Below are positions 1-11,842 of a stretch of 64,000 nt of DNA, piece after piece. The first letter of the stretch is position 1; each line of letters begins with the position of its first letter. A program made the translations under genes and the position numbers. This stretch comes from Oscillospiraceae bacterium (GTDB taxonomy: Bacteria > Bacillota > Clostridia > Oscillospirales > CAG-272): NCBI GenBank assembly GCA_015065455.1, contig SVQI01000004.1, positions 12,593-76,592 of the forward strand. Direction: 5' to 3'. The notes beneath the pieces were generated by a model, which searched no databases, was not told the DNA's origin, and saw only the letters and a list, made by a program, of their open reading frames with translations.

Positions 1-309
1 GTTTACCTTCGTTATGTTTATATCAACATCTTTATCATTTAACTCTGTTATTTCTTTAAGATAAAGTTCTTCGTGTCCGTGTTTTATTGATGGAGTAACA
101 GAATCAGAGATATCCTTATCTGCAGAATTAAATTCAAGATGTTTTTTGTCAATCTCCTCTTTTGATGAAAAGTATCTGATAAGATTTTCATCGAGTAACT
201 GAACGTTATCGCTGATAGTAAGAGAAGTAAGAAAAGGGATATTATCTTTTTCATACAGATATTTCACAGAAGCGGCAAATTTCAAAATGTCTTTATTTTT
301 TAATTTCAT
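1..309 (-). CDS. Phage protein, DUF1617-like (3' end outside window)
   Basis: Read manually: AGGAG RBS (316-320), ATG at 309, open to base 1: MKLKNKDILKFAASVKYLYEKDNIPFLTSLTISDNVQLLDENL...KEITELNDKDVDINITKVN; family call from recalled resemblance only. Confidence 0.6.
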   Translation of the reverse strand, partial: MKLKNKDILKFAASVKYLYEKDNIPFLTSLTISDNVQLLDENLIRYFSSKEEIDKKHLEFNSADKDISDSVTPSIKHGHEELYLKEITELNDKDVDINITKVN

Positions 310-326
310 TAAATACTCCTATCATT

Positions 327-1256
327 TTAACTACTTAGATTTATGGTACCAACAACGTTTCCTGAACCGTTCAGAACGTACAACGTATATGTCGATCCGA
401 CTCTGTTTAGGGCAAATGAAAATGCGCTGTTACCCGTTCCGGTATCAAAGGTAAGAATATCGGAACTGTTTATAAAAAGTCTGCAGTTTATTTCGGGAGA
501 GGACATATAAAGTTCTCTACCTATTCTGGTTCCGTTATAGTTGTTTAATAGGTCTAGTCTGCTATTGTTATCAGTCATAATTTTGGAGGCAGTAACCGAA
601 CCGTTTGCAATATAGTCTCCGTTTATATAGCAAGAACCGTCTTTAGAAATAGAAAAAGTAGTATTTCCGGAGGGATTATAAGCTTTGAGCCAACAATCAT
701 CGGAAGAATTAGCTGAATTAAGGTATATAGAACCCTTTCCGGAAGCGGTACTTGAAATAGAATTTGATGAAATATTCCAACCGCCCACATAAGCCGAAAG
801 CGCTGATAGGTCACTAACCGATAGCTTGTCCGCGGATATAGAACCCGTTTTGATATTAGCACCGTTAATTATTGTTTCTCCTGAGTTTTCAAGGTCAGAA
901 AACTTGACAAAACCGCTGATAGAAACTGATTCGGATATAAGCGATGCAGCATAGCTTGTAAGAGCAAAATCAGTTGAAGAGTTAGAGTCTTTTATAAACC
1001 AATTTATTTTTTCTGCCGTTTGAGTGGTTTTTGAAAGTTTATCGTCAAGTGAAATAATAGTTTCATTGGCAAGCTTAGCGTTATCGTAGGCAGTGTTTAT
1101 GGTTTGAGATAGACTATCGGATAGGTTATCGTCATCAATATTCAGCATAATATATTGGAGTTGGTCGTGTAGAATTGCAAGATAACCTTTTATTTTTTCA
1201 AAGTTATGTCTGTCTGATATTTCGGAAAGAGAGGGAAGAGTAACGTTAAGTTGCAT
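327..1256 (-). CDS. Tail fibre/spike-like structural protein
   Basis: 309 aa; N-terminal coiled coil, INGANIKTGSISADKL and YIANGSVTASKI repeats typical of phage fibres, Ser/Gly-rich beta C-terminus; start overlaps the upstream stop. Confidence 0.65.
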   Translation of the reverse strand: MQLNVTLPSLSEISDRHNFEKIKGYLAILHDQLQYIMLNIDDDNLSDSLSQTINTAYDNAKLANETIISLDDKLSKTTQTAEKINWFIKDSNSSTDFALTSYAASLISESVSISGFVKFSDLENSGETIINGANIKTGSISADKLSVSDLSALSAYVGGWNISSNSISSTASGKGSIYLNSANSSDDCWLKAYNPSGNTTFSISKDGSCYINGDYIANGSVTASKIMTDNNSRLDLLNNYNGTRIGRELYMSSPEINCRLFINSSDILTFDTGTGNSAFSFALNRVGSTYTLYVLNGSGNVVGTINLSS

Positions 1257-3052
1257 TATACCACCTCACCTGCTTTTTCAATTACTTTTGTAAGCGAGTA
1301 AAGTTTAAAGTCGCCTTTTCCGGCAAACTTAAGCTTAAAATGGTCGCACCTCGGCGGGAGAATATGCAGTATACGTGTTGTAAGCTTGGAGCTTGTTAGT
1401 GTGTCGAAAAGCTCCCAATTGTTATTTGAATCCGTTTGTATAAATACAGAAACAGAACTGCCTTCGGATATCTCAATTCGGACTTTCAATTTGTTAAGAT
1501 ATTTACAGTCATCAAAAGAGAGACCAATAAGGCCGCTTTCAGCAAACCAGTCAAAATTATTTTCCGTTTTCAGTGAGTCTGAATAAAGTGTTTGACAAAG
1601 CTCGGGTATTTCTGAAGAGAATAATAGCTCCAGATTGTAGCCGTCTTGAGTGTGGTTTATGCTGAGAATATTCCCATCGTATTTTGAGAAAAACATATAG
1701 TCGGTGCTATCGTGACGATGCCAAAGATTTCTTACTATGTCGTATGCATACAGATGCCGCGTTTGATAGCTGTCTGTCAAACAAATAAAGTATGTGTTTT
1801 TACCTACTGCAGCTACGGCGTGAGAAAAAATTTCATTACCAAGCGGTTTTGAAATCAGAATAGGAGCGCTTCCTGAGTATGAATAAATTCCGTCATTGGA
1901 GTGATAGAACAGAGTGCCGTTATGATTGCAAACGGAGTTTTCGGAATGCTTCTTAATTCCTGGATATTTGTCATTATACACGGTAAAGTTTGAGGGTTTT
2001 GTTCCAAAAAGACGATGTATACTGTTTTCTTTGAAAAAAAGTACGTTGCCCATATGAGATGCAATACCTGTAAATTCTCCTTCGCTTCCGCAAGAAGCTG
2101 TATAACTGTCGGTAGATATACCTTGATATACGTTCCAGTTTGTTGGATCACCATGTTTTGAAGCGTATATTTCGTTGACAAATTCCCCTTTATTATTAAG
2201 ACCGTAACGGCAGCCAAAAAGTCTGTTCTGGTGTTCACAAACGAAATCCATAACAGGAACAGCGCGTTCTATCGTAATTCTATTTTGTCCTTCAAAAAGG
2301 CCTCCGTATACCTTATCAATATATCCGGGTACGGTTATTTGGTCATATTCCATATCAGCTACGGTATGATATCCGTCCATTCCAAAACCAAGGTTGGAAA
2401 TTTCTATTCCATCACCAATCTTCAATCCCATGTGAATATGATCTGCTAATATACATATATGAGTTGACGCGATGCTTGTCCAAGTATTATTAGTGGCAGA
2501 GTATATGTAAAGTTGGTTGGGAAACACAGAACTATCAAGCCACAATGCACCGTCTTCGACTTGCTGAGGTGTTTTTGGTAAAACTATCGGATATGGTCTT
2601 CCCGCAATGCATGGAGTCAACGAAACGCTTACATAGCTAAGTATGTTTTTAGAGTGCAGAAACCCTTTGCTGACACATATTTTATCCTCGTTCAGCGTCA
2701 TAGTGTCAATATAGTAATTGTCGGGGAAAACAATAATTTTACTGCCCATTGATACTATCTGTTTTTTTGTGTTTTCTTCAAGTTTGTCATATTGGAGAAC
2801 ACCGTTGTAATACAGTGAAGTTCCGATGACGTACGTAATGCCATTTGTGGTGTGAAGTGCGGAGGGCTTTTCGGGAAGTGATGTAAGAACTGATCTTTTC
2901 TCTCTTGTGGAAAGAATAGGAAAAAGTGAAGAAGTGGTATTTTGTGTGTTAGAAAAGAAGTTTTCTGAAGCAGCAGACGTTCTGTCAATACCGCCAAAAG
3001 TTGATATTGTGTTTTCTGTCAGTTTATAGGGTTTTAATTTTGGGAAAAACAT
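1256..3052 (-). CDS. Podovirus tail nozzle/stabilisation protein (P22 gp10 / T7 gp12-like)
   Basis: 598 aa beta-rich; N-terminal TFGGIDRT, DFVCEHQNRLFG and IYASKHGDPTNW segments; position after the adaptor. Confidence 0.65.
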   Translation of the reverse strand: MFFPKLKPYKLTENTISTFGGIDRTSAASENFFSNTQNTTSSLFPILSTREKRSVLTSLPEKPSALHTTNGITYVIGTSLYYNGVLQYDKLEENTKKQIVSMGSKIIVFPDNYYIDTMTLNEDKICVSKGFLHSKNILSYVSVSLTPCIAGRPYPIVLPKTPQQVEDGALWLDSSVFPNQLYIYSATNNTWTSIASTHICILADHIHMGLKIGDGIEISNLGFGMDGYHTVADMEYDQITVPGYIDKVYGGLFEGQNRITIERAVPVMDFVCEHQNRLFGCRYGLNNKGEFVNEIYASKHGDPTNWNVYQGISTDSYTASCGSEGEFTGIASHMGNVLFFKENSIHRLFGTKPSNFTVYNDKYPGIKKHSENSVCNHNGTLFYHSNDGIYSYSGSAPILISKPLGNEIFSHAVAAVGKNTYFICLTDSYQTRHLYAYDIVRNLWHRHDSTDYMFFSKYDGNILSINHTQDGYNLELLFSSEIPELCQTLYSDSLKTENNFDWFAESGLIGLSFDDCKYLNKLKVRIEISEGSSVSVFIQTDSNNNWELFDTLTSSKLTTRILHILPPRCDHFKLKFAGKGDFKLYSLTKVIEKAGEVV

Positions 3053-3079
3053 TATGCACCCCCATATTTATTAGAGTGA

Positions 3080-3454
3080 TTAAACGTTAAAATATAGTGT
3101 TTTTTTGATAGGCATATTATTTCGATTGTAATAATTTTCAAAATCACGGTATGCCGTTGAATAAAGAATGACGTCGTTGTTATATCTCGAAATATCTGAA
3201 AGATAAAGGTCTTTTTTTATTGTGAGAAAACGCAGATAAATATCAGAAAACGGTTCGGGCACGAGAAGTCTCGTATTGTCGTCAGTGTCTGTGGTATAAC
3301 CGTTAAACGAAATATGCTCAGGGTTTTCATGTGTAAGGATAATATCTGTATATATTGCAGAATCAAGCAACGAAAGCCAGTCTATCTTTATTTCCGAGGG
3401 AATATTATTTTTGACTTCTCTGTCGAATTTTTCAATAGCTTCTTTTAGTGTCAT
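3080..3454 (-). CDS. Head-tail adaptor-like protein
   Basis: ~124 aa helical protein (LLVPEPFSDIYLRFL) between capsid and nozzle; GAGG RBS favours ATG 3454 over 3466. Confidence 0.6.
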   Translation of the reverse strand: MTLKEAIEKFDREVKNNIPSEIKIDWLSLLDSAIYTDIILTHENPEHISFNGYTTDTDDNTRLLVPEPFSDIYLRFLTIKKDLYLSDISRYNNDVILYSTAYRDFENYYNRNNMPIKKTLYFNV

Positions 3455-3462
3455 AGTATTCC

Positions 3463-3690
3463 TCATTTGCTGATGGATTTTTTGTATTTTTCGGCTGCTT
3501 CATCAGCGTATATAGAATTTTGAATTACTTCTGCAAAGCAGCGTTCAACGTAAAACTGCTTGCCGGTGGGGATAGTTTTGTATCTTCCGTTAATTGAAAC
3601 GGTGCGGACCTCATCATCTTTAGAGCGTTTGGGAATAAAAATAGGAACCAATTCGTTTTGTGTGTTCTGTGTATCTTTTGTGTTTTTCAT
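3463..3690 (-). CDS. Small hypothetical phage protein
   Basis: AAAGGAG RBS then ATG 3690; 75 aa (VSINGRYKTIPTGKQFYVERCFAEVI) directly after the capsid gene. Confidence 0.7.
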   Translation of the reverse strand: MKNTKDTQNTQNELVPIFIPKRSKDDEVRTVSINGRYKTIPTGKQFYVERCFAEVIQNSIYADEAAEKYKKSISK

Positions 3691-3748
3691 AATAATACTC
3701 CTTTTATCTAATAATAATTCAAGCAAAACAGTTGTCTTTTTAAAAATC

Positions 3749-3779
3749 AGGGGACTTTTCTGATAAGAAAAAGTCCCCT
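3749..3779 (-). terminator. Intrinsic terminator after the major capsid gene
   Basis: Hairpin AGGGGACTTTTC-TGATAA-GAAAAAGTCCCCT with flanking T/A runs. Confidence 0.75.
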
Positions 3780-3791
3780 TTTTATCAAATA

Positions 3792-5126
3792 TCAGTTGCC
3801 TTCGCTAATGCTGTCAGCGAAAGAAGAAGAGGATTCAACGCGGAGAATATATTCATCTGCGAGAATGGCGGCTGTCATAAACGCTTTCCAACCGATAGAA
3901 CTTCTCTGATTAAGAGGGTCATTTCCATAACCTCTCTGCTTAACGATATGTTCAATAGTTCCTGAGCCATTTATGTCAATGATGCCGTAAGCATCGCGGC
4001 CGAGAAACAATGTTGAATATGTAGCGCAGCCAAGACTACCGCCTTCGCCTGCAAAAAGTGATGCGCTATCAGCGTTGGAAGTTCCACAGTCACTATCCAA
4101 GAATATAAATTTGTTTTCAACGTTAACGCCTGTTATTTTGTGTACGGATGCTTTGTTTGTTGAAGATTTAAATACCTGAACCAATCTGCCAACAATATCG
4201 GGAGAAAATTCATCCTTAACTGTAAACTGGAATGGTGTGGCGGTTCCGCAACCGGCAGATACAGTGCCTGTTCCTTCATTTGTGTATGCCTGTGCAGAAA
4301 TGTGTTTCTTGGTTGAAGAAAAGGGCTTACCGTAGTTAATCTTTGCTTCTGACGATTCAACAAATCTGACACCGCCGAGAGTACCGAGTTCACCGTTAAG
4401 AATGTTATCAGGATCGGCATATTTCTTGATATCAATCCAGGCATCTCCAGACTGCTGCATTAAGTCAAAGGCTACGTGAGGGTGAATGATGGCAACGTAT
4501 TTGCCATCGATTGTCGGAACGTTAAGGGCTTTAAGCTGGGCAGCAGCTTTAAAAACGTCAACAACACGAAGTCTGGAGGAGGGTTCAAGATATGCGCGTG
4601 AAGAAACGTCTGTTAAATACCCCTCATCATCATTGGGACAGTAATATACGTTGGTACCCGTCTGAAGAACGTCACGAATGACAGTATCAAGTGTTCTGCC
4701 CGCCTGGTCAGCAAGAAGCTTTGTAGCTTCGATAACTGTGTTGTCAATCGATGTCATTTCAATAAGGTCGGTCTGTTCGATGTAGTCACCGTACTGGTTG
4801 AGAGTGGCAGTAAGCGGAACTACCGTCATCTTTGAGCCTGAAGGAGTGATACCTTCTGTAATAGCGTTTGTGTTTTTTGCCAAGGGCTTCATTCTGCGAA
4901 ACTCAATAGTTTTTCCGCCGTGAGCGGGAATAGAGCGTTTCTGACCAAACTGTGCGTGTACGAGATTGGGTGTTGCAAGCTCGATAAGTGTTTTATCGTA
5001 GAATGTTTTCATTTCGGCAGAAAGACCGCCGCCGTTGTAGTTTTCAACAGTGCCCGCGTTTGAATTTACAAATCCTTCAGTACTATGAACTGTGCTGTTT
5101 GCGCCGTATGTGTTAGTGTTTTCCAT
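3792..5126 (-). CDS. Major capsid protein, N4-gp56 family
   Basis: LSAEMKTFYDKTL, GKTIEFRR, EGITPSG, QYGDY, GELGTLGGVRFVE and DPLNQRSSIGWK motifs; AGGAG RBS. Confidence 0.9.
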   Translation of the reverse strand: MENTNTYGANSTVHSTEGFVNSNAGTVENYNGGGLSAEMKTFYDKTLIELATPNLVHAQFGQKRSIPAHGGKTIEFRRMKPLAKNTNAITEGITPSGSKMTVVPLTATLNQYGDYIEQTDLIEMTSIDNTVIEATKLLADQAGRTLDTVIRDVLQTGTNVYYCPNDDEGYLTDVSSRAYLEPSSRLRVVDVFKAAAQLKALNVPTIDGKYVAIIHPHVAFDLMQQSGDAWIDIKKYADPDNILNGELGTLGGVRFVESSEAKINYGKPFSSTKKHISAQAYTNEGTGTVSAGCGTATPFQFTVKDEFSPDIVGRLVQVFKSSTNKASVHKITGVNVENKFIFLDSDCGTSNADSASLFAGEGGSLGCATYSTLFLGRDAYGIIDINGSGTIEHIVKQRGYGNDPLNQRSSIGWKAFMTAAILADEYILRVESSSSFADSISEGN

Positions 5127-5186
5127 AAGTTGTAATCTCCTTTTTTAATAGTTTTTGCGCAGGAGATTTTATTTAAGACAGATGGA

Positions 5187-6005
5187 TTAAAATCTTATTT
5201 TAGAGCCGTTTTCCACCTGCTTAAGAATAGAACGTATTTCTTCACCGGTGAGTGAAGATACGTCGGTTTTTCGGACAACTCCCGCGCCGTTGTGAAGTCC
5301 ATTTTCGGCTACGCGACTGCCTTGAGCACGAATGCTTTTGAGAGTCTGTTCGGCAACTTTTTTTGCAGTTCCGGAGACTGCGTTTTTTAAAAGCTCGTCC
5401 GAGTGTGCTGCTGTAAATGCTTTTTTTACGGGCATACCGTTTTTCAAAAGGGAAGCAAATACGGGATTTTTCAGTTCTGTTTTAAAATCAAAATTCGGAA
5501 AAATCTTTTTTAAAGCTTCACCTTCGGCAGCCCAACGGTTAGAAAGCATTTTTGCTTTGTTTGCAATATAGCGTTCTCTCATTTGCATTTCGTTTTTTTC
5601 AGCGTTACCCGTTTCAGATTTCTTTTCATCAGGAGCATCATTCTGCATTTTTTCAAGAAGCAGCGCGGTGTCAGAAGAATCAATTCCATATTTTTTGGAG
5701 AGAAAATCGAGTACAGGCTGCTGTTTTGCCTGAGCTTCCTCGAGAGTTTTCAAGGTCTTAAAACGCTTATCAATAATGCCCTGTGTGCGTTTTTTGAAAG
5801 CGTTTTCATACTTTCCACCCTTGATTAGCTTTTCGAATTCTTCTTCAAGCTGATTGCCGTCCAAAATGTTGTCGGCAGAAGCTGTGTCAGATACTGCTTC
5901 AGTTTCGGGAAATGCGTCGCCCGTATTGGAGGAGATATCGTTGGCAATTTCCTCTGATGCAAAAAACTGAAGAGAAATTTTAATGGGTAAATAAATATTT
6001 TTCAT
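5187..6005 (-). CDS. Capsid scaffolding protein
   Basis: 272 aa; acidic N-terminus, charged helical body, LQFFAS motif; lies between portal and capsid. Confidence 0.75.
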   Translation of the reverse strand: MKNIYLPIKISLQFFASEEIANDISSNTGDAFPETEAVSDTASADNILDGNQLEEEFEKLIKGGKYENAFKKRTQGIIDKRFKTLKTLEEAQAKQQPVLDFLSKKYGIDSSDTALLLEKMQNDAPDEKKSETGNAEKNEMQMRERYIANKAKMLSNRWAAEGEALKKIFPNFDFKTELKNPVFASLLKNGMPVKKAFTAAHSDELLKNAVSGTAKKVAEQTLKSIRAQGSRVAENGLHNGAGVVRKTDVSSLTGEEIRSILKQVENGSKIRF

Positions 6006-6054
6006 AACATCGTTCCTTTCCGAAGTGTCAGAGCTTTTTTGATAGCTCGTGTGA

Positions 6055-6086
6055 TATTATACTATAAAATGATTTTAATCTCTCCC
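6055..6086 (-). promoter_or_regulatory. Putative module-specific promoter GGGAGAGA-N17-TATAATA for scaffold-capsid
   Basis: Minus strand reads GGGAGAGA ttaaaatcattttatag TATAATA; same boxes and spacing as 10040-10071. Confidence 0.65.
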
Positions 6087-6150
6087 TAAAAGCAATATTA
6101 TATATGATTAAAAGAATAGAATTAGGAGAGAGTGAACAGATACAAATTGC

Positions 6151-8070
6151 TTATCGTGGAGCGCTTAAGTTAGCAGCTCTCTGGCGTGCTTTGTCAATTC
6201 TTGAAATACTTTTTTTGGTATATGTGTATTTTTTTGATGGTTGAGCTGTTTTCTGCAATGTAAGATCTGAGTATTTTTTTACATAACCTTCATATAAACC
6301 TGCCAGCTCAGGATGGTCTTTTTCGACAATGGAAGCAAGTTCAAGAAGCTTTGATCGTATTTCCGTATAGTTTGTGGAAAGCATACTTTTTTCGCTTATT
6401 TTTTCTGCAATGATCTGTTTGCCGTCAAACTCCATCATATCAAGACAAGCCAATGCTTGTTCTGCCTGTGCTGGATTAAAGAAGCCAAGTCGGTAAAATT
6501 CTTTTGCAAGCTCGTTTTGTGAAAGCTTGGTAAATGCAGACTGTTTTTGAGCTTTTACTTTAATGTCGAAGATAGGCAAGCGCAAACCGAGATCAAATCC
6601 AAAAGAACTTCCCATAGAACGTGGTAAAAGATTTTCATTGTTGTATGTAACAAAATCGTATTCTCCGTTTTCGCCCGTTATTCTGAAACAGCGGGGCAGA
6701 TCGTAAAATTGTCTGATAAGTTCAATTATAAGATTGTTGAGTCTAACAAAGATTCTGTATGAGCCTTTGATCATATCTCTTGACAGCTTACTTCCAGCTT
6801 CCTGTAAGGCGGCTATGGCAGATGCCGCGGTGACACCCGAGGCGGTATTTCCTCTTGTGAAGTCAGAGTTACCGGTAGTTTCTTTAAGTTCGTTAATTTT
6901 GTTGTCTATAAAAGATACGTAAAGAGGTGATATATCGGAAACACGGATGGGAGTCATACTGTCATTGGGGTTGCCGGAACCTGTGTAGTGGACAATAGGG
7001 TTACTCCAGTCAGCAAATTCTTTTTCGTTGATTGATCCGTCTCCTCTGGCAAAATAACGAACGGTTGACGCCATTCTGATGTTTTCACAAACAGATGCGC
7101 TCATAAGATCTATCTGCGTCTGTGTATCCTTCATAATATCGATGAAACCAAACCCGCAAGGCGTACCTTGTTCGGTAAACAGCTTATCAAAAACAAAGGG
7201 ATAAAGACCGTGATCGTAATATCCTTTATTATAGAGTGTGATATCGTTTTCGGAAGCGTAGAGTATTTGATCTGCGCAAAATTTACAAAGGTGAAGAATG
7301 GTTTTTCCGTTGTTATTTACTTTGTAATACCAGTCGATAACGGGAGTTTTATTGCTTGTGTCAACAGCGTCGTCGTATTGATATTTTGTTACGTCAATTC
7401 CGTATGAACCAAGTTTACCGTGCAGAAAGGGGTATTTTGCTTCAAGTTCATCGTTGTTAAAAAGCTCAACGTGAAAAATATTGGGGGATTTCTGTATATC
7501 CGATACACCGGGCTCCCAGAAAAGATTTAAAATGTCGCATCTTTTTATAGCGATATCGCCCGTGCCGTTATTGAGTGAGGGGTCCCAAAAGATTCCGTAG
7601 ACACCTGTTCCGCCTTTCAGCTTGTCATACCAAACGTCTGAATACGTGTCTTCAAATGAGTTTTGTTCGAGAATGACAGGAAGTATTTCAGTAAGCTGTT
7701 TTGCAGCGTCTGAGTCGCTTTGTTCTCTGGGAAGAACGATTGCTTCGGGGCAGTTATCCATAACGTCAGCGTGCTTGTTTGCGATAGCATTGAAAAGCCA
7801 GGCGGATGCAGGATTGTGTTTTCGGCTTCTGTCGCGAATCTGTTCCCAATGGCGCATTTTCCACCACTGTTCGTTTTCTGTAACTCTTTTTTCAAGGTTG
7901 GTTTTACCCGCTTTATAGTTTTTTAAGAGTGAATAGGCGCGGTCGAGGGATTTTTGATTGATTTTGTCAGGAGAATAATCGGGCGGGAGAAGCGCATCCG
8001 GATTGTTCTTGATGTAAATGGATGAAACAAGGTTTTTATCGGGGATTTTTTTGTTTTGTTTTTTCTTCAT
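6151..8070 (-). CDS. Portal protein (P22-like/podoviral type)
   Basis: 639 aa after terL; GTGVYGIFWD, YPFVFD, SGVTAASAIAALQEAG segments typical of portals of this class. Confidence 0.8.
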   Translation of the reverse strand: MKKKQNKKIPDKNLVSSIYIKNNPDALLPPDYSPDKINQKSLDRAYSLLKNYKAGKTNLEKRVTENEQWWKMRHWEQIRDRSRKHNPASAWLFNAIANKHADVMDNCPEAIVLPREQSDSDAAKQLTEILPVILEQNSFEDTYSDVWYDKLKGGTGVYGIFWDPSLNNGTGDIAIKRCDILNLFWEPGVSDIQKSPNIFHVELFNNDELEAKYPFLHGKLGSYGIDVTKYQYDDAVDTSNKTPVIDWYYKVNNNGKTILHLCKFCADQILYASENDITLYNKGYYDHGLYPFVFDKLFTEQGTPCGFGFIDIMKDTQTQIDLMSASVCENIRMASTVRYFARGDGSINEKEFADWSNPIVHYTGSGNPNDSMTPIRVSDISPLYVSFIDNKINELKETTGNSDFTRGNTASGVTAASAIAALQEAGSKLSRDMIKGSYRIFVRLNNLIIELIRQFYDLPRCFRITGENGEYDFVTYNNENLLPRSMGSSFGFDLGLRLPIFDIKVKAQKQSAFTKLSQNELAKEFYRLGFFNPAQAEQALACLDMMEFDGKQIIAEKISEKSMLSTNYTEIRSKLLELASIVEKDHPELAGLYEGYVKKYSDLTLQKTAQPSKKYTYTKKSISRIDKARQRAANLSAPR

Positions 8071-8109
8071 ATACAGTCTCCATTTCTGAATAGATTAAAA
8101 AAGTTTGTG

Positions 8110-9492
8110 TTAAACGTAGCTGTACTTTCTGTATCTTTCATCTCTCAATAGGTCAAGAGGGTCAGATGAAGGATATTTTGCAAGAATTTGTTTTTGAGGC
8201 TTTATGGGTCTTGACATACAGAAATAACGGAATGAGTCAGCGAAGTGGTCTTCCTGTGAAGTATCAAGATCCTCGGGGTTGGTTTTGCTGAACTGCAAAA
8301 GGGGAAGAGTTCTTATGGCATGCTTGCAGGTGTTAAAGAAATAGACCATAGGCTTTCCATCACTGTCGAAAGCAAGTCTGTAGTGAACTTGCATCCAGCC
8401 GGGAATTCTGCAATTATCTGCTTTTTGAAAATATACCTGATGTCTGTCAGCGGCGGCAATTATTGGCTCTCCGCCGTCCTCGCTCCAGATGGATGGATCG
8501 GCAATTCCGATAATTGATTTTCCTTTTAACCACCGATGCTCTGATTCTATTCTGTGAATTTCGGCAAATACTTTCTCAGCGTGCCATTTTAAGCCTTCGT
8601 TGGGGACGCCGTTGCTGCCGTAAAAGTGAAGAATGAGGTAGGCTCGTCCGTCGTAATCTATTGCCCACCAAGAGCAATCAAATGGTTTTGCAAATCCCCA
8701 GTCAAAGCTGCGTACGATATGCCAATCCGGTGGGATTTCAAAGGGCTCGATAACGTTTGTGAAGAGCCTGTCAGAATAATGTTCGGGCGCATCAATAAAA
8801 TCTTCAAAAAACTGTCCTTCAAATATGTTCCAATCACCGTCAAGCCAAGCCTTTTTTAGCTTTGGAGGCAAAGATGAAAGCTGCTTTGCATAATCGGGAT
8901 TTGTATCCATAAGCGCTTTATTGTCTGTAACAAGAGAACGTATAAAGCTGTAATCATTAGGATCTTCACCCTCTTTGTATACTCTATCAATGAATAAACG
9001 CTTTACCCACGAATGACCAACTCCGCCGGGATTGCAGGTGAGATATACTCTTTTTGGAAAGTTATTTACACCTCGTACCGTAACTTTAAGCTCGTCAAAC
9101 CATTCTTCTTTAAGCTGGGTTGCTTCGTCAATGAAAATAATATCCCATTCCGATCCCTGATACTGAGTCAGGTCAGCTTGACATGAGCAGTAACCAAAAC
9201 GAATTGCCGAGCCGTTTTTAAAAGCGAGTTCTTTTTTTGAATCGTTATAACTTGTAAGGTTTTTTGTTATATCGATAAGAGGGTTAATGTGATTGTTTCG
9301 GAGCTCGGCAAGTGTTTTTCTGATAATGAGTATTTTTATTCCCGAGTGCTTCAAAGCAAGTAATACCGCTTTTACTCTGACAGCCCAGGATTTACCTCCA
9401 CCTCTTGCTCCGCCAAAAGCAACGAATCTGTGCGTATCAAGCAGAAATTCTGACTGCTTTGGATTTGGAACTCCTAAAGAAATATGCTTCAA
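8110..9492 (-). CDS. Terminase large subunit
   Basis: Walker A GGARGGGKS, Walker B IIFIDEA, coupling motif LTCNPGG, nuclease motifs RSFDWG and EDHFADSFRY; GAGGTGA RBS before TTG. Confidence 0.95.
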   Translation of the reverse strand: MKHISLGVPNPKQSEFLLDTHRFVAFGGARGGGKSWAVRVKAVLLALKHSGIKILIIRKTLAELRNNHINPLIDITKNLTSYNDSKKELAFKNGSAIRFGYCSCQADLTQYQGSEWDIIFIDEATQLKEEWFDELKVTVRGVNNFPKRVYLTCNPGGVGHSWVKRLFIDRVYKEGEDPNDYSFIRSLVTDNKALMDTNPDYAKQLSSLPPKLKKAWLDGDWNIFEGQFFEDFIDAPEHYSDRLFTNVIEPFEIPPDWHIVRSFDWGFAKPFDCSWWAIDYDGRAYLILHFYGSNGVPNEGLKWHAEKVFAEIHRIESEHRWLKGKSIIGIADPSIWSEDGGEPIIAAADRHQVYFQKADNCRIPGWMQVHYRLAFDSDGKPMVYFFNTCKHAIRTLPLLQFSKTNPEDLDTSQEDHFADSFRYFCMSRPIKPQKQILAKYPSSDPLDLLRDERYRKYSYV

Positions 9493-9501
9493 GCTATCAC
9501 C

Positions 9502-9978
9502 TCACATACAGTATTTCTCCATATCATTTTCGAGGATGACCCGAATTTCATTTTCTGTTGAAACGGCTTCAGGATGTTTTCTTTGCTCGTATTCAATCTG
9601 TTTTTGTTCAGTAAGGAGGGGAAGAAGAAATATGTTTTGCTTGATGTTTATAGCCTCTTTAAGTGTAGATGTAAGCTCTTTTAAAGTTTTAGTGTCAACG
9701 TCCCCCTTTTTTGAAGAAGCCTCTGAGGCAGAAATGAAGGCGTTTTCTATAAGGGATTCCAAAGCATCCGAGGAACGCGCTAATCTTGAAACGTCAAGCG
9801 GTGGCATATCGGGAGAAGAATTATATTGCTTCCTTTTTTGAACCCAGTTGTTGTCCTTTGCATACTTTGCCAAAAGTCTTAATGGAATAGAATATTTGCT
9901 TGCCAGTGCGGCGTATGAGAGATTGGAGGATATATATTCATCTTCCGCTTTTTCGTAATCTAAAATTATGTTAATCAC
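9502..9978 (-). CDS. Terminase small subunit (start codon uncertain)
   Basis: N-terminal HTH (LSYAALASKYSIPLRLLAKYAKDNNW), helical core, immediately upstream of terL. Confidence 0.75.
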   Translation of the reverse strand: MINIILDYEKAEDEYISSNLSYAALASKYSIPLRLLAKYAKDNNWVQKRKQYNSSPDMPPLDVSRLARSSDALESLIENAFISASEASSKKGDVDTKTLKELTSTLKEAINIKQNIFLLPLLTEQKQIEYEQRKHPEAVSTENEIRVILENDMEKYCM

Positions 9979-10039
9979 CTCTCTTAAATAAAAAATTAAA
10001 TTGAAAAATAAAGGGTGTATAACTGTTTTGCTTGAAGAG

Positions 10040-10071
10040 TATTATATCAAATAATATATGTTTTCTCTCCC
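10040..10071 (-). promoter_or_regulatory. Putative module-specific promoter GGGAGAGA-N17-TATAATA for terS-terL-portal
   Basis: Minus strand reads GGGAGAGA aaacatatattatttga TATAATA; twin of 6055-6086. Confidence 0.65.
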
Positions 10072-10082
10072 CACGAGACGTA

Positions 10083-10111
10083 TTGACACTAAGTCGAAAA
10101 TGTGCTAAAAT
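10083..10111 (+). promoter_or_regulatory. Sigma-A promoter of gpsA
   Basis: TTGACA-N17-TAAAAT with extended TGn. Confidence 0.75.
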
Positions 10112-10158
10112 AGAGGATATAAAAGACAGAAAATATTCTCTTGTTTTTGGAGGAAAAT

Positions 10159-11112
10159 ATGGATATAACAGTAATCGGATGTGGCAGATGGGGTTCTTGT
10201 ATCGCGTGGTATCTTGACAAAATTGGCCATAACGTAACACTTTACGGAAACGATCTAAAACAGATCAGAGGAATAATGGAAACACGCACGAACGGAGTTG
10301 TGCAGTTTGGTGACAGAATAAATATTACCGATGAGATAGAGGTTGCCGCGAAGAATAAGACTACGGTAATTTCAATACCTTCACAGGCGGTAAGAGGATT
10401 GATGAAGGAGCTTCAGGCGTACGGAGCTTCAGAAAAAGAATACATACTTTGCATGAAGGGTATAGAGATCTCGACGGGAATGCGTTTGAGTGAAGTGGTA
10501 AGAGAGGCTACTACTCCTGAAACAAAGATAGCGGTTTGGATAGGTCCGGGACACGTAGAGGAATTCACAAAGGGAATACCCAACTGTATGGTAATTGACA
10601 GTGATAATAATGAATATAAAGAATATCTCGTATCACAGTTTTCAAGTGAGCTTATCCGTTTTTATTACGGTAAGGATCTTGTTGGAAATGAGATAGGAGC
10701 TGCTGCAAAGAACGTAATTGGTATTGCGGCAGGATTGCTTGACGGCAAGGGTTTATCATCGCTTAAGGGCGCTCTTATGGCAAGAGGTACGAGAGAAGTT
10801 GCGAGACTCATAACCGCTCTTGGAGGAAATGAGTTGTCTGCATACGGGCTTTGTCATTTGGGCGATTATGAAGCGACTTTGTTCTCCAAGTTCAGTCACA
10901 ACAGAATGTATGGAGAGATGTTTGCAAAGGGTGAACAGTACGGAAGTCTGGCAGAAGGTTATTATACAGTAAAGGCAATATTGAAATTGGCTGAAAAATA
11001 TAATGTTGACCTGCCTATTTGCGCGGCTGTATATGAAGTGTTATACAACGGAGCAGAGCCGGAAGCAGCGCTGAAGGCTTTGTTTACAAGATCTTTAAAG
11101 GGAGAATTTTAA
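10159..11112 (+). CDS. gpsA: NAD(P)H-dependent glycerol-3-phosphate dehydrogenase
   Basis: VIGCGRWG Rossmann motif, KGIE, AAKNVIGIA, LGDYEAT, SHNR; GGAGG RBS. Confidence 0.93.
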   Translation: MDITVIGCGRWGSCIAWYLDKIGHNVTLYGNDLKQIRGIMETRTNGVVQFGDRINITDEIEVAAKNKTTVISIPSQAVRGLMKELQAYGASEKEYILCMKGIEISTGMRLSEVVREATTPETKIAVWIGPGHVEEFTKGIPNCMVIDSDNNEYKEYLVSQFSSELIRFYYGKDLVGNEIGAAAKNVIGIAAGLLDGKGLSSLKGALMARGTREVARLITALGGNELSAYGLCHLGDYEATLFSKFSHNRMYGEMFAKGEQYGSLAEGYYTVKAILKLAEKYNVDLPICAAVYEVLYNGAEPEAALKALFTRSLKGEF

Positions 11113-11224
11113 CGTTATTTTCCGATTTTACCAAAAAGTTTGCAGTTACATTTTTAGTATTCATTGATTATAATATTAGTAACTATAATAGAGTTAGAGA
11201 TATTATAAAAGGGTGAGTGAGAAA

Positions 11225-11842
11225 ATGGAGCTGATTCTCATTAGCGAATCAAAACTGAAGATAATGCTGACAGCGGATGATATGGAGAATTACGACATAT
11301 CAAACGAGCAGATGACTTACGAGAAGAAGGAAACCAGGCGGGTTTTTGAAAAGCTTCTTGATGAGGCGAGAGAAAAGACGGGATTTGACAGTAGTTCGGA
11401 GCGTATTTTTATACAGGTATATCCGTCCAAGAACGGTGGGTGTGAAGTGTACGTAACGCTGAACACAGAGGGAAAGCAGGAAAGGAAACAAAGAGAGAAG
11501 AGTACTGCACCGAAAAACAAAAAGGAGTATTGTGTATATTTGTTTGAGAATATAGACGATGCTTTATCAGCTTGTTGCGTTTTGCGGAAAATCGGATACA
11601 AGAATGAAAGTTCGCTTTATTCAGAGCAAAAAGGGAAGGCACAGGTCAAATATTACCTTGTTTTGCAGGAAGATGTTATACAAAATACACAGGGCAGAAA
11701 AAGAAGAAACGTAAGCAAAAGCGATCTTGCGAACGAGTATGGGAAAAAACTTGCAAGCAAGGAGTGGATGCTTTACATAAGAGAGCACGGAAAAGCTATT
11801 GTTGAGAAAAATGCAGTTCAGACTATGAGTGTGCTCAGATAA
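11225..11842 (+). CDS. mecA: Adaptor protein MecA family
   Basis: MELILISESKLKIMLT start, IFIQVYPSKNGGCEVYVT, C-terminal IREHGKAIVEKNAV. Confidence 0.8.
   Translation: MELILISESKLKIMLTADDMENYDISNEQMTYEKKETRRVFEKLLDEAREKTGFDSSSERIFIQVYPSKNGGCEVYVTLNTEGKQERKQREKSTAPKNKKEYCVYLFENIDDALSACCVLRKIGYKNESSLYSEQKGKAQVKYYLVLQEDVIQNTQGRKRRNVSKSDLANEYGKKLASKEWMLYIREHGKAIVEKNAVQTMSVLR

Follow-up and report, generated by a model that had tools for sequence, protein, structure and literature searches.

A G-rich promoter box common to both operons of a chromosomal phage-like head, tail and lysis module in an Oscillospiraceae bacterium

The window analysed here is a stretch of 64,000 nucleotides (nt) from the metagenome-assembled genome of an uncultured gut Oscillospiraceae bacterium of the CAG-272 lineage (contig SVQI01000004.1, positions 12,593 to 76,592), designated G000:C8:12593-76592, where G000 is the genome under study. 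It includes a phage-like module of 13 kilobases (kb) with genes for head, tail and lysis, organized on the minus strand in two operons, and both operons begin with a promoter of the same type: a G-rich box, GGGAGA, located 19 nt before a -10 hexamer close to TATAAT. We propose that these boxes give specificity to a late promoter that depends on an activator, and that this promoter type was inherited from phages of gut Clostridia and kept by a domesticated, chromosomally fixed module for a short-tailed particle, similar to a gene transfer agent (GTA). This proposal is given somewhat better than an even chance of being right.

Two boxed promoters and their conservation in the genus

The pattern GGGAGAGA-N17-TATAATA occurs on the minus strand at positions 6055-6086 and 10040-10071, with unrelated spacers. 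At the scaffold-side site, GGGAGAGA occupies 6086..6079 and TATAATA 6061..6055; at the terS-side site, they occupy 10071..10064 and 10046..10040, respectively, so that 17 nt separate the two parts in each. An earlier note on this DNA had described these identical 8-mer and 7-mer boxes, and both the reading of the strand and a pattern search bear the description out. The search found just these 2 matches in the window, with 0.00 expected from 100 dinucleotide-preserving shuffles, and the same two places only in the whole genome (1,537,769 bases, 30 contigs), where GGGAGAGA alone occurs 111 times and TATAATA alone 1097 times on both strands.

The terS-side site lies about 60-70 nt 5′ of terS (9978..9502), and the scaffold-side site 49 nt 5′ of the ATG of a scaffold-like gene of 272 amino acids (aa) (6005..5187). 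In the packaging-operon promoter, the G-rich box GGGGAGAGA spans 10064..10072 on the minus strand, with its core GGGAGA at 10071..10066; this core is invariant in the 10 terS regions of the genus, 19 nt from the -10. The extended -10 (TGA followed by TATAAT) spans 10041..10049, and transcription would start near 10034. In the promoter of the head/tail/lysis operon, also on the minus strand, the box GGGAGAGA spans 6079..6086, with the core at 6086..6081, and GGGAGAG is invariant in the 10 scaffold regions; the -10 hexamer TATAAT (6056..6061) is found at 10/10 genus sites, with a predicted start near 6049.

No TTGACA-like hexamer is present 16-18 nt before either -10, where GAGAnn is found instead. 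A sigma-70 consensus scan of the window, requiring at least 4/6 matches per hexamer, lists neither boxed site, yet it detects the neighbouring promoter of gpsA, a divergent, canonical sigma-A promoter (TTGACA-17-TAAAAT with TG; 10083..10111, plus strand) which is back to back with the terS box and only 11 base pairs (bp) from it. The -35 position thus differs from that of TTGACA-type host promoters, as the earlier note had stated. It was also right that no regulator is encoded upstream of the module, the next genes being gpsA, a MecA-domain gene and a uracil-DNA glycosylase gene.

Conservation was assessed in 170 nt 5′ of terS (10 loci) and 170 nt 5′ of the scaffold-like gene (10 loci) from genomes of the same genus; the terS set has ten members because genome G006 has no terS-terL at the locus and the contig of G009 begins inside terL. 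GGGAGA-N19-TAnAAT has one exact match per region in all 20 regions, although the genomes are kin, and fewer observations are independent than the counts across the genus suggest. The scaffold site is also found on other contigs in two further genus genomes (L026, L126). Each position carries about 1.8 bits of information in the box and 1.3 in the -10; most spacer positions carry 0-0.6 bits, with a rise to about 1 directly before the -10. The flanks and leaders of the terS sites form two unrelated groups, and the box and the spacing are constant in both. The -10, TAnAAT throughout, is TATAAT at both window sites, and a TGn precedes it at 10/10 terS sites and 4/10 scaffold sites. Absence from orthologous loci had been named beforehand as an outcome that would count against the motif; it is present at every one of the 20 assessable sites. 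The full 8-mer and 7-mer do occur as described, but the conserved unit is smaller, namely GGGAGA, 19 nt and TAnAAT.

The motif is not common at random. In this genome, the count for GGGAGA-Nk-TATAAT peaks at k = 19 with 7 matches; the remaining spacings from k = 8 to k = 32 gave 0-3 each (mean about 0.6), and four permuted hexamers showed no spacing peak. The exact pattern gave 44 matches in 12 genus genomes, against 3 with a reversed-pattern control, while 40 other genera of the family presented no excess (11 matches versus 12 controls).

The box at unlinked sites and in other lineages

The 44 exact genus matches include 17 module sites, 4 sites before toxin-immunity cassettes and 23 mixed ones. 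A profile of the cassette N-termini, searched across the genus genomes, found 7 chromosomal cassettes in 5 genomes and one weak match inside a prophage. All seven chromosomal cassettes, which share a MuF-type motif, carry the box at a fixed distance from TATAAT, four with exact GGGAGA and three with one mismatch; the prophage copy has no box. The expectation that the motif would reveal unlinked members of a regulon is therefore supported. Cassette L136 encodes a sub-threshold MuF motif joined to a barnase-type ribonuclease (Ribonuclease, PF00545, 40.1 bits), followed by Barstar (71.8 bits); cassette L138 encodes DUF6883, followed by an 82-aa open reading frame (ORF). In the genome under study both toxin genes are damaged, by an internal TGA and by truncation before the ribonuclease domain (G000:C16:13187-13964 and G000:C4:459-1323), and the two immunity genes, one of 87 aa and a Barstar gene of 111 aa, are undamaged. 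The box of the truncated toxin gene is also mismatched.

The cassettes resemble the MuF polymorphic toxins of temperate phages (Jamet et al. 2017, PMC5576092), as outlined in the portions of that work considered here, in combining a toxin domain with a small downstream immunity gene, in the MuF-type Cys/His motif of the N-terminus and in the link to a phage head module. They differ in that the toxin proteins are short (113-177 aa) and match only the last third of the MuF profile, below the threshold (Phage_Mu_F, 21.6 bits with a cut-off of 29.6; profile positions 65-97 of 112), and in that they are located away from the head module, tied to it by the shared promoter alone.

Among the 23 mixed matches, 13 are 5′ of genes: gyrB (3), hrcA (2), a phosphatase-rimI-tsaD operon (2), uvrB (1), Fic (4) and AAA_21 (1). 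The box precedes gyrB in 3/10 genus genomes, and gyrB was not upheld as a conserved regulon member. The Fic-domain gene, of 418 aa, is found in four genus genomes (L125, L128, L132, L141) behind a box-type promoter with a near-identical spacer, which is followed by a second, extended -10 promoter. Upstream of recA there is a 21.7-bit match with TATTAT as the -10.

The motif was also considered as specific to the genus, and this was rejected. A weight matrix built from the 20 genus sites found nothing above 22 bits in 74 related loci from outside the genus (1.0 Mb), but it is blind there because the AT-rich spacers of the genus are built into it; a plain GGGAGA-N18-21 search finds the box in other lineages. 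In a Cuneatibacter element (L067), GGGAGA-N19 is found before terS and again before the scaffold gene, and a Ruminococcaceae element (L117) has it at the same two entry points; the design recurs in IMG/VR contigs. Cuneatibacter sp. NSJ-177 is a cultivable carrier of this promoter type. The box also precedes terS in G020, with a 20-nt spacer, and in an Avispirillum metagenome-assembled genome. A sister lineage (G013, L113) presents a different box, GGTGGTACCCT, which has a palindromic core and lies 22-23 nt 5′ of TAT(G/A)AT (L112, positions 5256 and 8925; L113, position 5042); in G013 it marks the starts of the two operons, at terS and at the scaffold gene alike. Among IMG/VR contigs found through the leader element described below, 6 of the 13 assessed share a G-rich word of 9-21 nt between the region 3′ of the gene for p81, a small protein described below, and the region 5′ of the scaffold gene. 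One lineage-specific box common to both operon starts thus appears to be a trait of the family, which argues for a dedicated factor that co-evolves with it. As related prophages in other families have the box before each of their two operons, it would be an inherited class of phage late promoter; on these comparisons, the motif is not private to the module and probably represents a late-promoter type of a wider family of gut-Clostridia phages.

Modules from Acutalibacteraceae (L048, L053, L062, L070, L076; positions about 4300-5500) have an ImmA-like peptidase and an XRE repressor at their start, divergent from a sigma-A promoter with a LexA box. This promoter leads into a p81 homologue, a small terS-like gene and terL, and a Prp cysteine-protease gene follows the portal gene.

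A second conserved element is present in the 5′ untranslated region of the scaffold-like gene. This leader element, TGACACTTCGGAAAGGAACGATG (6008..6030, minus strand), is invariant in 10/10 genus loci and is found in other families too. It comprises about 21 nt, GACACTTCGGAAAG and then (G)(A)ACGATG, directly 5′ of the ribosome-binding site of the scaffold gene, and occurs in distant lineages (L048, L051, L053, L062, L067, L117 and the IMG/VR loci L203-L282). The IMG/VR contigs were retrieved with its 14-nt part as a DNA pattern, which gave 91 matches, about half of them chance hits in unrelated genes; the extension is present in 39 of the 91, and in several contigs the element is repeated in tandem, with 2-3 copies at distances of 23-33 nt. 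A small hairpin (GAGCU...AGCUC; 6031..6048, minus strand) is directly 5′ of the element, the leader fold having -11.3 kcal/mol and z = -2.7, and relatives present hairpins of differing sequence at the same position, as judged by eye. The element itself has no conserved fold, and Rfam (E up to 1, window positions 1-11000) gave no match at either promoter or at the leader. It looks like a putative protein- or ribosome-binding site in the mRNA leader.

A candidate switch locus and competing explanations

In the mechanism proposed here, the sigma-A holoenzyme would bind the -10, which is TGn-extended at terS, and GGGAGA, at about -37 to -32 in place of a -35, would be recognised by a factor that recruits or stabilises the polymerase. 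The region 4.2 helix of sigma-A is canonical in this genome and should not read a G-rich box; therefore, we infer that a dedicated trans factor is needed. One promoter would serve terS, terL and portal, and the second would serve scaffold, capsid, tail and lysis genes; because the same promoter type precedes both operons and the toxin cassettes, all of them would be switched on together.

The earlier note had placed this factor elsewhere in the genome, as a dedicated activator or an alternative sigma factor. The first idea is made plausible by an unlinked operon with an S24 repressor and a terS-tied protein family, but a spare sigma-like regulator was not found. The other sigma-domain genes of this genome are four of sporulation type (one split over two contig ends), a sigH-like gene beside rlmB, a fused ECF/anti-sigma gene and ylxM, and two further ones are on a mobile-element contig. 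This contig (G000:C9, 8.6 kb, L196) looks like a small mobile element, with an integrase fragment, a sigma-70-region-4 protein, an XRE protein, an ABC transporter, an ECF sigma factor with its anti-sigma factor and a MobC-like gene. The ArpU model (TIGR01637) has no match in this genome, and a 145-aa LtrA-like query, which is present in 4/12 genus genomes, has 0 matches; no Ltr-family activator was found here, where the RinA, LtrB and LtrC models were not searched separately. Throughout the genus, the gene directly 5′ of terS is gpsA and not an activator gene.

A comparison of the ORFs of related loci with this genome pointed to a small protein on contig C25. It is encoded in a switch locus (G000:C25:48685-50960; L144, positions 4686-6960) which is unlinked to the module and conserved in 12/12 genus genomes, with identities of 89-99% for the repressor, 80-95% for p81 and 73-92% for p59. 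The repressor joins an XRE helix-turn-helix domain to Peptidase_S24 and is the sole full S24 protein in the genome. Divergent from its gene is a TTGACA-N17-TATAAT promoter, with which a 12-nt operator, present three times, overlaps. Behind this promoter are encoded a 130-aa membrane protein, an acidic 59-aa protein (p59) and p81; no sigma domain was detected in any of these three proteins. The repressor was also considered as a global SOS regulator, which was rejected, the operator being limited to its own locus and one further match in the genome, inside a gene on contig C2.

In the proposed cascade, the S24 repressor would hold the operon for the membrane protein, p59 and p81 silent at its sigma-A promoter. 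DNA damage, the presumed trigger, would lead to self-cleavage of the repressor and synthesis of the factor, and then both module operons and the toxin cassettes would be transcribed, with particle production and lysis as the outcome. The single S24 repressor of this genome has a DNA-binding domain of the XRE and not of the LexA type. One canonical LexA box (CGAAC-N4-GTTCG) occurs in the genome, at neither recA nor uvrB.

The protein p81 has a real length of about 68 aa and four invariant Cys. Its relatives are encoded on the module strand directly 5′ of terS in about 30 of the 74 related loci; in L067 and L117 they come right before the boxed terS promoter, and in 4 viral contigs they precede it by 27-83 nt. 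Among 41 related genomes, 17 have a strong portal match, and p81 occurs in 15 of these; none of the remaining 24 has it. The AlphaFold model is confident (pLDDT 85.4), with three strands and two helices; the Atlas neighbours of p81 are unnamed viral clusters, and a tblastn search of 50,697 deposited phage genomes found no match at E 1e-3. From its gene position and co-occurrence, p81 itself may tentatively be named as the trans factor, although we consider this clearly less probable than the opposite; a factor supplied by the p81 operon as a whole is somewhat more probable.

Several observations weigh against the activator model and its candidate. No Pfam, PHROG or NCBIfam family covers p81, and p59 is also without a Pfam family; the p81 family profile has no PDB sequence match at E up to 10, its model has no significant structural neighbour (Foldseek best E 1.6; VIA-align best Z 3.4, to an AP2 DNA-binding domain), and no signature for binding of DNA or RNA polymerase is detectable in it. 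Co-variation between p81 and box type is not significant, 387 of 5000 label permutations being as good (identity 0.279 within the GGGAGA type, 0.253 to others), in a test that used automatic box labels, some of them doubtful. The protein also occurs in lineages that have differing operon starts and no such box; in Acutalibacteraceae, its gene comes first after the sigma-A promoter with the LexA box, and a hairpin resembling a terminator precedes the scaffold gene. In one true prophage of the genus, a p81 paralogue is followed by a weak sigma-70-region-4 (LtrA-like) protein, and this neighbour could be the real late activator there. Besides, p59 is restricted to the genus and the box is wider. 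Finally, the box matches before housekeeping genes are poorly conserved (gyrB 3/10; exact matches at uvrB 1/12, the phosphatase operon 2/12 and hrcA 2/12), which makes a wider regulon uncertain.

A bolder version of the activator model would see the particle as a co-regulated weapon: p81 would be a new zinc-binding class of about 70 residues that replaces -35 recognition, DNA damage would switch on both operons together with MuF-motif toxins loaded into the capsid, and the switch would perhaps have been recruited to host stress promoters (uvrB, gyrB, hrcA) in a genus without canonical LexA. We regard this version as unlikely.

Simpler promoters could be assumed instead. Extended -10 promoters can work without a -35, and the perfect -10, together with the TGn at 10/10 terS sites, would suit plain sigma-A promoters that rely on the (extended) -10, with a weak -35 and a G-rich stretch kept for another role, such as binding of a nucleoid protein or service as an upstream element; box-type matches before the housekeeping genes gyrB, uvrB and hrcA in some genomes agree with this. 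What makes this account improbable is that GGGAGA is invariant at its fixed 19 nt in all 20 regions while neighbouring bases drift, that the TGn is present at 4/10 scaffold sites only, and that the box recurs at unrelated toxin cassettes and at both operon starts of distant phages; a constitutive promoter before holin and endolysin genes would, moreover, be expected to kill the cell. Constitutive promoters are assumed as well in a control like that of Q, where the box would be the loading site of a processive antiterminator, p81 or another protein, that reads through downstream terminators. Related elements show p81, then a terminator, then the boxed promoter; the Acutalibacteraceae group has its terminator-like hairpin before the scaffold gene; and the second promoter leads into the highly conserved leader element. 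That element has no conserved fold, though, and the terminator scan of the window is empty between either boxed promoter and its first gene, which leaves such control with a small probability.

Readers of the box other than a phage-borne activator would be host proteins. An alternative sigma factor of the sporulation, sigH-like or ECF type, several of which are encoded in the genome, could read both boxes and couple release to a developmental stage. The -10, however, is the sigma-A consensus with TGn, and we know of no sporulation, sigH or ECF consensus pair that resembles this pair of box and -10. Cultures producing FpGTA, the GTA of Faecalibacterium prausnitzii, lyse in late stationary phase according to the part of its description considered here (PMC12946183), which would agree with such coupling. 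The same promoter type is present in prophages of other host families, and therefore a phage-borne factor fits better; we give the sigma alternative little credence. A host transcription factor that has nothing to do with the p81 locus, such as a stress regulator of the genus by which the module has evolved to be read, would account for the 23 extra exact matches in the 12 genus genomes, besides the 17 module and 4 cassette sites, and for the lack of excess in the 40 other genera; the 13 extras before uvrB, gyrB, hrcA, Fic, AAA_21 and similar genes point the same way. Against it, these sites are poorly conserved between species, the box type is common to prophages in other bacterial families and no candidate host factor was identified in the analysis, and so we hold it to be rather unlikely.

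Comparison with known systems and the module genes

The control logic appears to match that of Ltr/RinA-type late control and of the Xre/Xpf pair of PBSX, although neither set of defining proteins was found and the cis element is of another kind. The Ltr superfamily (RinA, ArpU, LtrA/sigma70_r4, LtrB/DUF1492 and LtrC) activates the late promoters of temperate phages of Gram-positive bacteria (Quiles-Puchalt et al. 2013, PMC3753634). As that study presents it in the sections considered, packaging, morphogenesis and lysis all depend on a promoter directly 5′ of terS; the gene for the activator adjoins terS on the same side, as p81 relatives do in L067 and L117; and the activator is under a CI-type repressor, answering to SOS through a two-step cascade, which the S24 XRE arrangement described here would fit. 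On the other hand, no Ltr-family protein was found here, and the candidate, with 68 aa and four Cys, belongs to no described family; one G-rich box, located at the -35 with fixed spacing, takes the place of the repeats upstream of the promoter reported for Ltr in those sections. Two promoters are present here instead of one, and the candidate gene is unlinked from the module in this genus.

PBSX of Bacillus subtilis is controlled by the Xre repressor, and the sigma-like positive factor Xpf drives its late operon. The module resembles PBSX as a defective, chromosomally fixed phage-like particle with a late operon that runs from terminase to lysis and, if the candidate is right, with a small positive factor controlled by a repressor; a weaker likeness is the XhlA-like gene before the holin and lysin genes. 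Here, in contrast, the switch operon encodes no sigma-like protein, the repressor has an S24 self-cleavage domain, the tail is short with a P22-like portal, and the regulator is located on another contig. GafA and GafYZ control alphaproteobacterial GTAs and offer a parallel as unlinked, dedicated activators of a domesticated particle cluster, for which only a candidate locus is available here; proteins, organisms and promoter architecture are unrelated.

FpGTA was described in 2026 and is encoded in two operons (Borodovich et al. 2026, PMC12946183). In the part of that paper considered here, it is presented as a podovirus-like set of head, packaging and lysis genes that lacks genes for replication or integration and is conserved among the species of one genus of gut Clostridia. 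Judged from gene content alone, the module is similar, with head, packaging, tail and lysis genes at a fixed site across species (11/11 portals). As FpGTA is also split into two operons, its operons would need co-regulation by a shared signal too; the text considered has 0 occurrences of ‘promoter’ or ‘regulator’. The TerS encoded here has an N-terminal part that resembles a DNA-binding domain, and the FpGTA TerS is described there as having none (PMC12946183). The literature searched contains no GGGAGA-type late promoter and no regulator of gut GTA-like elements, and a 2026 preprint on murine virus-like-particle DNA has no occurrence of promoter, SOS or LexA.

The analysis offers a cis element of exact spacing that can be searched in any genome; a regulon defined as the two module operons together with toxin-immunity cassettes; and a candidate switch, the S24 repressor and its small operon, that predicts DNA damage as the trigger. 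The timing and cause of particle production and lysis thereby become testable, and proteins may be among the cargo of the particles, as the link with the toxin cassettes suggests. In gut metagenomes, the motif is also a marker for the late operons of a larger, uncharacterised family of phages.

The module is found at one chromosomal site in the genus, between gpsA and a capD-like polysaccharide gene. The portal was detected in 11/11 other genus genomes, with 74-88% identity; gpsA adjoins the module in all 9 loci that reach that flank, where the MecA-domain and uracil-DNA glycosylase genes follow it in this genome, and the capD-like gene does so in all 3 loci that reach the other. The locus contains no integrase, replication, lysogeny or regulator gene. 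All its genes in the window are on the minus strand. The packaging operon comprises terS (9502..9978; 158 aa; phrog_1206 terminase small subunit, E 7e-6, with genus orthologues), terL (8110..9492; Pfam Terminase_3, E 2.7e-16) and the P22-like portal gene, the last before the scaffold-side box (6151..8070; Pfam P22_portal, E 8e-24). In the second operon, the scaffold-like gene comes first after the box (5187..6005; 272 aa; phrog_13908, its position between portal and capsid being conserved) and is followed by the major capsid gene (3792..5126; phrog_1357 major head protein, E 4.6e-76) and by five further structural ORFs of 87, 128, 598, 309 and 103 aa, of which the part in the window spans 1..3726. 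Left of the window, this operon continues with a 369-aa ORF, an XhlA-like ORF, and the holin (phrog_297) and endolysin (phrog_291) genes at G000:C8:9722-10998. The XhlA-like ORF (80 aa; L002, positions 11019-11261, minus strand, on the same contig G000:C8) is weakly similar to its model, with 23 bits and a cut-off of 34.7, and the order XhlA, holin, endolysin resembles the PBSX lysis cassette.

The start of terS (9964-9978, minus strand) seems to be a non-canonical ATA/ATT, 5-8 nt past a GAGGTGA ribosome-binding site; the listed GTG start falls within this site, and the AT(T/A) ATT pair is kept in most genus loci. Locus L024 (G006:C78; positions 3552-3986 and 5908-10941) has no terS-terL between gpsA and portal, and it presents a 5-kb insert on the opposite strand between portal and the scaffold-side box, with an ABC-type 746-aa gene and others. 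Four other species have inserts of 1-4.5 kb at this place, which share a conserved ORF of 115-117 aa. MuF toxins were sought in these portal-to-box inserts of the five species, and other genes were found there instead.

The scaffold-like protein (5187-6005, minus strand) has an SLQFFA motif at its N-terminus, which we take to resemble the propeptide cut by the Prp protease from L27 and from some phage head proteins. The modules of relatives carry their own Prp gene (Peptidase_Prp, 55 bits), and this genus has a chromosomal homologue only (G000:C29:101271-101549). The capsid protein (3792-5126, minus strand) has an insertion of about 90 residues, at approximately residues 264-354, which is absent from relatives outside the genus, whose matches are split around it.

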